In this document: positions 51,201-54,200 of the stretch, one piece after another
Layout: every line of letters starts with the position of its first letter
Position numbering within the stretch: the stretch's first letter is position 1
Source of the DNA: Escherichia coli
GTDB lineage: Bacteria > Pseudomonadota > Gammaproteobacteria > Enterobacterales > Enterobacteriaceae
Assembly (NCBI RefSeq): GCF_017348835.2
Contig: NZ_CP071375.1
Strand: one strand, 5' to 3'
DNA length: 64,000 nucleotides
Program-made: the position numbers

Positions 51201-54200
51201 CCATAAAGAAGCCTAAAAAGACAGAACGTATTGTAACAATAGTGCTCCCCATCTGAACCTGAGCTCCTCCGTTAAAAGCCAGTGTTCGTATGCCAGAAAG
51301 AGTATCCTGCGGTATTTCCCCCAGTCCCCCACTCGCTGTTAGATATGGTGTTAAATTTATTGGCATAATAAAACCCCCATTAACTTCATTAACATTTTAC
51401 TTGATTTCCTGTTGAAGCATCTTACTTATCACAATGCTTTCACACACCATTATCAGTCTTGCAAAAGATAAGACTCCATTATCAAGCCAAAATAAATTTA
51501 ACTTCATTAACAAACATCACCATGGCATGCCAACAAAAACCGGAGCCGGACTCCGGTTTTGTGAAGCTGTCGGGTTACTTCATCCCGCCAATATTTTCCC
51601 ACGTCCCGTCAGCACGCAGAATTTGCAGCGGTCTTACCACGCACTGTATCTGCTTTTTATCTGCATCCAGTATCACCACCTGCGTGATTACCCTGTCCTG
51701 CTCCGGAATAATGCCATTCTCATCTGACTCCAGAATGTCTGCCGGTCCCAGACGCAGTTGTGCTGTAAGTAACTCCCCGTGTTCACGGTCATCATGCTTT
51801 CCGTACCCGCACAGACGCTGCATAAGTTTTTTTAGTACGTTCATGTCATTCTCCTGTTCTGCCTGTATCACTGCCCACTTCATCCAGCCCCTTAACATCC
51901 TGCCACGGCCCGTCACCAAACCTGACCTGCAAATGCTGAAACAGCCCCTGAACCTGTGTGGCATCTTTGGGGTCAAGAAAGGTCAGTCCAGTGATGAGCG
52001 CACCATCTGTACCCGGGAACCAGCCATTGCTGTTTGTCTCAATAATGCTCGCCGGCCCCAGACGAAAACGGATTTGTGTCTCCCCCGGGTCGCCCTTCGG
52101 TCCCTGAGGTCCGGTTGATGGTCCCGGCATGTGACGGCGGGAAGCCCTCCACCAACAGAATGACGCTGTACTGACCGTACTCAACGTCCATGCTGTAACG
52201 ACCGGCTTCATCCGGATTTTCAGAGGCCACCGTGTTCACCACCACCGTGCTGCTGGTCCGTCTGGCTTTCAGTTGAATGGTGCAGTTCTCTACCGGTTTT
52301 CCTGTGCCGTCTTTCAGTACACCTGAAATCTTTACTGCCATATTCACCCCACAAAAAAGCCCGCCTGAACCGGCGGGCTGTCATAACACTGTGTTACCTG
52401 GCTAATCAGAACTTATAACCGACACCCACGATGAAACCGTCAGTGCGCCAGTCGCCACTGCCGGAGCCTTCATAAGCAATATCAATGGCCACGGATTCGG
52501 TCGGGTTAAACTGCACGCCAGCTCCCCACGCCAGAGAGGTGTCGCTGTGGCGACCGTCATCACTTCCGGTCAGCACATAGTGCGTTTTCCCCTTGTTGTC
52601 AGTTACGCGAAGATAATCCCCGGAGAAAGTCGACACACGGCTGTAAGCCACACCCGCCATCGCATACGCGCTGAACCATTCATTCACGCGCACAGACGGC
52701 CCCGCCATTACGCTGAACCAGCGGTTACGCACGGAATCTTCATGCCAGCGGGTATCGCTGTAACGGGTAAGCTGGCGATTCTTGTCTCCTGCATGGCGGT
52801 ATTTTTTGTTGATCGCCGCATCCACACGTAACAGCGTCTCTTCCTCATCAGGACGCCCCATAGCTGACACCTTCCAGACCATCGTTACCACCTGGACCAG
52901 TGATGAGCACAGACGCTATGGCAACAGCCCCACCACCAATAGCAGCTGCAACAGCCTTGCGTAATGACGGCGACATTATTCACCTCTCGCAGCCTTACGC
53001 TTATCTTCTTTAATCTTGAAATAAAGATTTGTCAGATACGTCAGCAAGCCAAACACCAGGCTACCCAATACGCCTATTGCCACCCACTGGGATGGGGAGA
53101 CTTTGTCCAGCAACTGCAGTAGCCAGTATCCCGTCCCCACCGCTGACGTGGTGTATGACACACCTGTTGTTATTTTTTCCATCTGGTACATACCCCGTCT
53201 CCCGTTATCCGGAAGCTGACAACAATAAAAAGCCACCAGTTAATTCCTGATGGCCCTGATGCATAAACGTCATAATACCTGACTGTTATGATTGACAATA
53301 ATGATAATGTTTATATAGAAAGGTTCCCGATGTGTGTTACATATCATTTCTCCACGGGGAATATCCCCACGCCAGCGCAGACTCTTTTACCCGTTCTCTT
53401 CTGCGCTGGCTCTTTTTTATTATGCTGCTGCATTTACCTCTGGCACCATGCTTTCTATCTCAACACAATACGTGCTACTTCTTGTAACCAATATCATAAC
53501 GATTAATCGACATAGAATTTCTCCCGTGTACAGGAACAGAGTTAAAAAGCCGGAACCGGAATCAAATCACAGGATGACCATCTGCCAGTGGCAGGTCATA
53601 AAAAAAAGGCCGCGCCATGCGCAGCCAGAACTCACAAGGAAAATGATAGAAGGAAATAACATTAGTGATGTACGCATGGCGCCTCCCGCTAAGTTCTGCA
53701 ATGATCAAACAGAACTCGCTACGTGCCCTTAAAACTCGATCATTTAGCCCCTCCAAGGAGGATTCACCATGCGGTTGATTTTTTAATAAACAGTAAACAA
53801 AAAAGTCAAGAATTATTCATTCTGTTCTTTCATCATCGGCCACAGCAATACCACAATGCCGCAGACCAGAGCGCCATCAGTCAGTACCAACATTATCCTG
53901 CTGGTGAAATCCATCATCACCATCACTAAAAGCAGGATCACAACAGCAAGCAGACACAGTTTATAAAACAATGTTCAGAAAACGCATTCAGCATGCCTAA
54001 GGTTCTATTCCTACGAATAGCCAACTTGCAACTTAAAATATTATTTATGCAGCCAATTAAATTCTGGTCCTTACAATATCAACCTGAAGATTCTTATCTT
54101 GTGCTGATTGATAAATGACAAACCTTTTACTACCTGCATTGAAAGAAGTAGACAAAACCAGACAATTATCATAACGAGCAAGAACATAATACCAACCATC

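Follow-up and report, generated by a model that had tools for sequence, protein, structure and literature searches.

In the 64,000-nucleotide stretch of Escherichia coli DNA analysed here (the window) a remnant of a lambdoid prophage carries an intact gene S for an S21-type pinholin, followed by a stub of the endolysin gene, a piece of a terminase gene and a truncated lom gene, and we consider it very probable that this locus is a product of neutral decay in which the pinholin was spared by its position. As a feature it is ordinary and already annotated prophage decay, since partial lysis cassettes are commonplace in defective lambdoid prophages of E. coli and the NCBI pipeline already annotates an intact holin here, with pseudogenes for lysozyme and Lom behind it. 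The value of a closer look is a corrective one: the supposed spacer behind the holin gene hides the endolysin stub and the terminase fragment, which would document two microhomology-mediated deletions. All genes from S to lom lie on the minus strand:

52976..53191, minus strand: S, intact gene for an S21-type pinholin (PF04971 profile match, alignment and hydropathy)
52848..52976, minus strand: R', 5' stub of the SAR endolysin gene (R homology 52976..52861, nt 1–116, codons 1–39)
52789..52862, minus strand: A', internal 74-bp piece of the terminase large-subunit gene (nt 1305–1378 of 1950)
52406..52794, minus strand: lom', 3' two-thirds of the gene for an Ail/Lom outer-membrane protein (nt 212–600 of 600)

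The holin gene S

The reading frame of S runs uninterrupted over 71 codons from 53191 to 52976 (minus strand) and the Pfam scan matched its product to PF04971 over practically the full profile (positions 1–63 of 64, E=1.1e-32, 112.2 bits at a cut-off of 26 bits), confirming the intact S21-type holin ORF that had been claimed in the preliminary description. It also matches phrog_9876 and phrog_20 holin, and the protein is WP_000284524.1 with the RefSeq annotation "class II holin family protein". In the alignment it is 75% identical to S21-71 of phage 21, with which it shares the length, the hydropathy and the C-terminal basic tail, and 99% and 96% identical to the holins of the phages 1717 and 434, respectively; together with L014, a prophage described below, identities of 99–100% are reached among these relatives. 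The Kyte–Doolittle profile is the same as for S21 with a weak TMD1 and a strong TMD2, only residues ~31–60 being above 0.9. Also shared with S21 and invariant in the holin alignment are G40, S44 and G48, which form the GxxxSxxxG face of TMD2, a motif whose role in TMD2 is known from the S21 literature.

The proposed dual-start motif stands only in part. Met1 and Met4 are both present, but the N-terminus reads MYQM with Tyr-Gln between them where S21 has Lys-Ser (MKSM), so that the basic residue of S21 is missing, and in the alignment the holin of phage 434 is without Met1. As the S21-71 antiholin is defined by an additional N-terminal positive charge (basic residue) (PMC9636201), S of the remnant is unlike phage 21 in being without this extra charge.

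The junction between holin and lom

According to the preliminary description 84 bp separate the stop codon of S from lom and the holin is fused to lom. Neither statement can be kept, as the stretch in question consists of R' and then A', lom homology begins only at 52794–52797, and R' is out of frame with A'-lom'. The ATG of R' overlaps the stop codon of S (TAATG at 52976), which is the same overlap of R start and S stop as in phage 21, and its ORF comprises 42 codons, namely 39 R residues followed by Gly-Ala-Ser and an out-of-frame TGA at 52850–52848. All 39 R-derived residues are identical to R of the phages 434 and 1717; overall R' is 88% identical to R21, with 36 of the 39 R-derived residues matching. 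It keeps the SAR helix (residues ~8–27) and Glu35 while the remainder of the 165-aa lysozyme is missing, R' shows no match to the Pfam lysozyme domain (PF00959), and PGAP labels it 'lysozyme, incomplete, missing C-terminus'. The stub could be co-translated with S but would not be catalytic. At the DNA level S and the first 116 nt of R are 94.8–96.3% identical to phage 1717 (Stx2) and phage 434, and this homology ends exactly at 52861 (R nt 116).

Prophages in hundreds of E. coli genomes contain the A' sequence with 100% identity, and gene 2 of phage 21 is 98.6% identical to it. From 52794–52797 onward follows lom, starting with its nt 212 (GCTATGCAG), and the match to PF06316 (Ail_Lom) is restricted to profile positions 69–199 of 199, in full agreement with the 5' truncation that had been described. 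From its start point onward lom' is 99.7% identical to lom of RM8385, it has no signal peptide and an incomplete barrel, and PGAP calls it a pseudogene. The sequence lying in frame upstream of it is terminase-derived: the GTG at 52891, which had been taken as the start of lom, is a mechanical ORF start outside the lom homology, and the ORF reaches that far upstream because A' happens to be in frame with lom'.

An endolysin ORF in 52892–52975 had been named as an argument against a lone pinholin, and such an ORF is indeed present; being the 39-codon SAR stub, it leaves the conclusion that there is no endolysin activity unchanged. A tblastn search of the entire window (64 kb) detected neither a functional endolysin nor Rz/Rz1, Nu1 or a complete terminase gene, and no Rz/Rz1 is annotated in the corresponding loci of the genomes PE164 and F2_81. 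The observation that a working endolysin, the spanin and the head and tail genes are missing while the pinholin gene is intact is thus supported, and with R cut after codon 39 and Rz/Rz1 gone the remnant differs clearly from the S21-R21-Rz/Rz1 cassette of phage 21.

Base-level alignment revealed a microhomology of 2 bp (TA) at the R/A junction and of 6 bp (ATGCAG; 8 of 9 with the flanks) at the A/lom junction. Short microhomology at junctions is the usual mark of illegitimate recombination, and we therefore read both junctions as deletions of this type. Among 5426 complete E. coli genomes two carry the R'/A'/lom' junction, namely PE164 (pig, China) and F2_81 (pig, Australia), and it is also found in further assemblies; using the 42-aa ORF as probe it was detected in 24 database blocks (23 contigs read). 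One might think of mis-joins of repeated prophage sequence during assembly, as the strain contains numerous lambdoid prophages whose S, lom and stf resemble one another (15 places in PE164), a setting that favours mis-assembly. The junction is, however, 100% identical in PE164 and F2_81, which were finished independently and come from different continents, it recurs in at least ten further assemblies including an ENA metagenome contig, and its microhomology is typical of real deletions, which leaves the chance of an artefact practically negligible.

Origin of the junction

The exact S allele of the remnant occurs in 9279 database blocks, and in all 10 distinct contexts listed it is adjoined by the full 165-aa lysozyme, with an Rz-type lysis protein following in all but one of them (L022, which shows only an Rz1 ORF). 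L014, a prophage of GCA_046575965.1, is 99.67% identical to the remnant over 3.3 kb from 56190 to exactly 52861, shares the entire Q-to-S architecture and continues past 52861 with full R-Rz-bor-DUF3950-Nu1-A. This near-identity together with the full continuation into lysis and terminase genes suggests that L014 resembles the parent. Unlike the remnant, whose homology stops at 52861, L014 and the phages 1717 and 434 possess the complete 165-aa lysozyme, spanins, cos, terminase and morphogenesis genes. Compared to L014 two stretches are missing from the remnant, one of ~4 kb between R nt 116 and A nt 1305 and one that reaches from A nt 1378 up to lom nt 212; outside R' remnant and L014 diverge by 0.16% and nearly every undeleted ORF is intact. 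R' itself shows six differences to L014. We rejected decay as their cause, since the 39 residues match R of the phages 434 and 1717 without exception, and regard them as allelic mosaicism.

The late region of the parent would have had the order Q-pR'-(membrane protein, DUF3927)-S-R-Rz-bor-Nu1-A-...-J-lom-stf, from which the remnant may have been derived by two microhomology-mediated deletions or by one complex event. Across TA the first join would connect R nt 116 with A nt 1305, and across ATGCAG the second would connect A nt 1378 with lom nt 212; both together would have removed ~4 kb of lysis and cos DNA as well as the entire head and tail module, leaving S, which lies directly 5' of the first breakpoint, untouched. 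We think that S owes its integrity to its position outside the break and to the recent date of the event, after which decay by point mutation has hardly set in.

Other lysis-to-lom remnants have likewise lost the morphogenesis genes that lie between the lysis genes and the J/lom/stf cargo end, but their breakpoints are different. The holin is cut after 63 nt in MFDS1001074, which like our remnant has T3SS effector genes nearby, whereas AR_0069 has the holin and ydfR without endolysin and then full lom, the Res13 strains have the holin and an intact endolysin and then lom from nt 356, and in L018 S-R-Rz-pRha is followed by a J fragment. Compared with these remnants the R'/A'/lom' triple junction is confined to this lineage. 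The scattered breakpoints of independent remnants argue against any rule sparing the holin, and the scatter fits the published pattern of gene loss in incomplete prophages, in which lysis, lysin, terminase and portal genes are preferentially lost while tail-fibre and integrase as well as transposase genes are enriched (PMC7744054).

The late regulatory region

Between Q and S the following features were found:

55052..55675, minus strand: Q, late-gene antiterminator of the lambda type, intact, 207 aa (PF03589, E=1e-57)
54961..55009, minus strand: putative pR'/qut-like late promoter (alignment with pR'/qut of lambda and mEp234)
54057..54799, minus strand: gene for a TfpB-like membrane protein, frameshifted pseudogene (1-nt deletion at 54321 compared to L014)
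53813..53971, minus strand: intact gene for a DUF3927/TciB-like small membrane protein (PGAP; phrog_1470, E=2.5e-17)
53608..53626, minus strand: predicted terminator-like hairpin between pR' and S (8 bp, 7 GC, T8; consensus scan)
53404..53513, minus strand: scar of a SASA/nanS-p esterase gene (local blastn against phage 434)
53229..53257, minus strand: predicted terminator-like hairpin just 5' of S (consensus scan)

Q is 98% identical to lambda Q (203 of 207 residues). Located 45–90 nt 3' of Q and identical in L014, the pR'/qut-like site has a -35 element TTGACT at 55009–55004, a 17-nt spacer containing the Q-binding-element-like TTTTGAATAA and a -10 element GAAACT at 54986–54981, and from the alignment, which made use of the promoter and qut annotation in mEp234, it probably functions as pR'/qut. 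Q with its cognate pR'/qut-like site 5' of the lysis genes corresponds to the layout of the lambda late operon, and in having Q and the late promoter of the lambda type and not of the Q21 type the remnant again differs from phage 21. In its regulation the segment from Q over pR' to S is intact, and intact-looking prophages have an identical one; a functional module that had been kept would look alike, which is a point against the neutral view. No tRNA genes as in Stx phages lie between Q and S, the only tRNA in the window being a Pro tRNA at 2766, and no Rfam match was found to RNA elements in 46000–62500.

The hairpin at 53608..53626 matches the position of an annotated terminator in phage 434. 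The TfpB-like gene is labelled 'frameshifted' by PGAP in PE164 and F2_81 as well, and its intact homologues match PF27470. In the esterase scar the first 25 nt and the last ~70 nt of the gene are joined at 53489/53488, and an antisense ORF of 132 aa (53334..53732) spans it. We considered the scar as a third deletion specific for the remnant and rejected this idea, as the same scar and the same antisense ORF are present in the intact-looking prophages L013–L021, making the scar older than the remnant.

The pinholin had been suggested to act on induction, for which we see no basis in cis. cI, cro, N, pL/pR, O and P are missing both from the genes that PGAP lists for the near-identical locus in PE164 and from the Pfam matches of ORFs in the window, so the remnant should not be inducible on its own in cis, and Q could only come from fortuitous transcription or from another phage in trans. 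A sigma-70 promoter scan of the minus strand, which is non-decisive, gave no convincing match 5' of the HNH gene that could feed Q. A Q/pR' type like that of the remnant was found in 1360 of the 5426 E. coli genomes, so that trans supply of Q is possible in principle. S is expected to be silent behind the pR'-proximal terminators unless lambda-type Q is supplied. S21-68 forms small channels and collapses the proton motive force without lysis (PMC9636201), and by analogy S at phage-late levels would do the same.

How little S may matter at basal levels can be estimated from DLP12 of E. coli K-12 (essD-rrrD/ybcS-rzpD/rzoD), which likewise keeps an S21-like holin in a defective and non-inducible lambdoid prophage. 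Unlike the remnant with its lone S, DLP12 has kept the whole S-R-Rz/Rz1 operon, for which phenotypes in vesiculation and cell-wall maintenance are reported. A DLP12 delta-R-Rz mutant with only the S21-like holin essD left is viable and shows a 2.4-fold higher vesiculation (PMC7918800), and basal S in the remnant would probably be tolerated in a similar way.

In some relatives IS elements have inserted between pR' and S, namely IS903B at 53487–53495 in F2_81, L024 and L025 and IS1 at 53521/53522 in GCA_032490375.1 (all in window coordinates). Pinholin expressed alone is lethal (PMC9636201), and these two independent insertions, ~30 bp apart and ~300 bp 5' of S, might therefore indicate that the orphan pinholin is a residual liability, mildly deleterious and lethal if trans-activated, with selection favouring its insulation by IS elements. 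We regard this as unlikely: there are just two events, their target is the non-coding esterase scar where insertions are neutral, the IS3 of PE164 sits elsewhere in the remnant, and no IS lies between pR' and S in the window and several other assemblies. Moreover, enrichment of IS elements is general in cryptic prophages (PMC7744054) and a Q-modified polymerase may read through the IS anyway.

Distribution and selection

In the preliminary description the pinholin was thought to be possibly under selection, and we found no support for this. S is nucleotide-identical in 12 of the 12 junction copies examined, in which the variable sites fall into lom' and the upstream spacer and the F2_81 group has a 42-bp deletion in lom'. 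With ~6 variable sites per 1.2 kb, however, only ~1.1 would be expected in the 216 nt of S and the probability of finding none is ~0.34, so 12 copies without variation have no power and the invariance of S is the null expectation. The same follows from the low divergence to L014, as nearly all undeleted genes are intact, Q, ninI, ninG, the HNH gene, ninE and DUF3927 likewise. Weak selection for or against S would still be compatible with the sequence data.

One form of selection to be weighed is a domesticated depolarisation switch, in which Q, qut and the pinholin, perhaps along with the 42-aa SAR peptide, are kept because lambda-type Q from a co-resident or superinfecting phage leads to extra or premature pinholin, collapse of the proton motive force and an aborted or mistimed infection; alternatively, pinholin at a low level could influence the physiology of the envelope or vesiculation. 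In its favour, Q, pR'/qut and S are without exception intact and do not differ from those of functional-looking relatives, trans-activators are common as the frequency of the Q/pR' type indicates, 14 other places in PE164 match a 1001-base query covering S, R', A', lom' and the start of stf, and the DLP12 holin-only mutants show increased vesiculation. Nevertheless, we find such a switch very unlikely, since there is no sequence variation in which purifying selection could show, the junction is restricted to one lineage, independent remnants destroy the holin or retain the endolysin, and IS903B or IS1 between pR' and S in relatives would tend to uncouple S from Q. In addition, PADLOC gave no match for the four neighbouring ORFs (590-aa, HNH, 172-aa and 132-aa). 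It is even more doubtful that the Q/qut/pinholin unit and the 42-aa SAR-helix peptide are a trans-activatable depolarisation device switched on by any incoming or co-resident phage making lambda-type Q. If it were true, the holin dose would rise and triggering would come early with a smaller burst of that phage, or the cell would die before progeny is formed, and a decayed lysis cassette would have gained a function in defence or interference, offering prophage wreckage a simple new route to defence. Neutral decay with a pinholin spared by position thus remains the reading we prefer. The lineage with the junction is found in widely separated places (pigs in China and Australia, other assemblies), and this observation speaks against the neutral view.

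The rest of the remnant

The remnant is a lambdoid prophage of ~15 kb that carries NleA and NleG and sits in the yfaT/yfaS region. Above S the gene order is int-xis-dam'-ninE-(590-aa ORF)-HNH-ninG-ninI-Q, where the 590-aa ORF lies on the other strand; its sole match is phrog_9230, which has no assigned function, with none in PADLOC, Pfam or NCBIfam. Behind lom two further features were found:

52358..52379, minus strand: predicted terminator-like hairpin after lom (consensus scan)
51508..52347, minus strand: side-tail-fibre remnants (PF08400 and PF06820 matches; blastn against L008)

In the side-tail-fibre remnant the N-terminal domain (52347..52116) is joined to C-terminal pieces with an internal deletion of ~816 bp, and PGAP labels it as frameshifted. 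The remnant in PE164 carries an additional IS3, and the window corresponds to PE164 minus this insertion.

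Decay and insertion sequences in the remnant and its relatives

In the group represented by F2_81, one of two complete genomes from pigs that carry the junction of the orphan holin with the endolysin stub, the terminase fragment and the lom fragment (S-R'-A'-lom'), a further 42 bp are deleted within lom' (window 52679-52720), where about 10 bp can be aligned to either edge of the gap, and thus the decay of this pseudogene is still ongoing. The neighbouring side-tail-fibre gene carries a frameshift and an internal deletion of about 816 bp, and a Phage_fiber_C domain is found in each of its two overlapping ORFs.

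51508-52347, minus strand: side-tail-fibre gene remnant
53334-53732, plus strand: 132-aa ORF, annotated as hypothetical protein, antisense across the scar (53404-53513) of a SASA/nanS-p esterase
54057-54799, minus strand: gene for a TfpB-like membrane protein, located between pR' and S

Compared with the near-identical, parent-like prophage L014, the TfpB-like gene shows a 1-base deletion at 54321, resulting in ORFs of 172 and 80 aa. Both the esterase-deletion scar and the 132-aa ORF are also present in many intact-looking prophages. Upstream of the orphan holin, at a distance of about 300 bp, related strains (loci L002 and L023-L026) carry two different insertion sequences at sites about 30 bp from each other.

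53487-53495 (window equivalent): IS903B in F2_81, L024 and L025; these 9 bp align on both sides of the element
53521/53522 (window equivalent): IS1 in GCA_032490375.1

PE164, the second complete genome, carries an IS3 instead, within the tail-fibre remnant near 51638.

Insertion site and effector genes

The remnant (about 46780-62600) is inserted in the region of yfaT (DUF1175) and yfaS (alpha-2-macroglobulin), and in the annotations of both PE164 and F2_81 the macroglobulin gene next to it is itself a pseudogene, interrupted by an internal stop. It carries two T3SS effector genes, nleA and one nleG family member (window 48784-50025, plus strand, and 50719-51366, minus strand). L024 (GCA_900196645.1) and L025 (GCA_900196605.1) share the S-R'-A'-lom' junction, the IS903B and the 42-bp deletion, but downstream they encode NleB and NleF, not NleG and NleA. 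This difference suggests that prophage remnants carrying effector genes have recombined with each other at a point downstream of the tail-fibre C-terminus.

A shared deletion endpoint in lom

The deletion endpoint at lom nt 212 (GCTATGCAG; window 52789-52797) is also used in the remnant of MFDS1001074 (L003, about 6060-6075), in which the holin is cut after 63 nt (GG[C/T]TACTGCAG) and joined to lom at the same position. This remnant is apparently of separate origin; it shows only 93.5% identity in the lom/stf allele, and the context of Q and tRNA is unlike that of the window. The common endpoint could be a microhomology hotspot or else a coincidence; in intact lom a near-Chi sequence, GCTGGTGA, is found about 20 nt upstream of it.

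An ORF opposite to the phage genes

58060-59832, plus strand: 590-aa ORF in the nin region, oriented opposite to the phage genes

The surroundings of this ORF are AT-rich (30-35% GC), and it matches phrog_9230, a family of unknown function, from end to end. No match to it was obtained in Pfam, NCBIfam or PADLOC. A moron or a defence gene of a kind not yet characterised may be encoded here.
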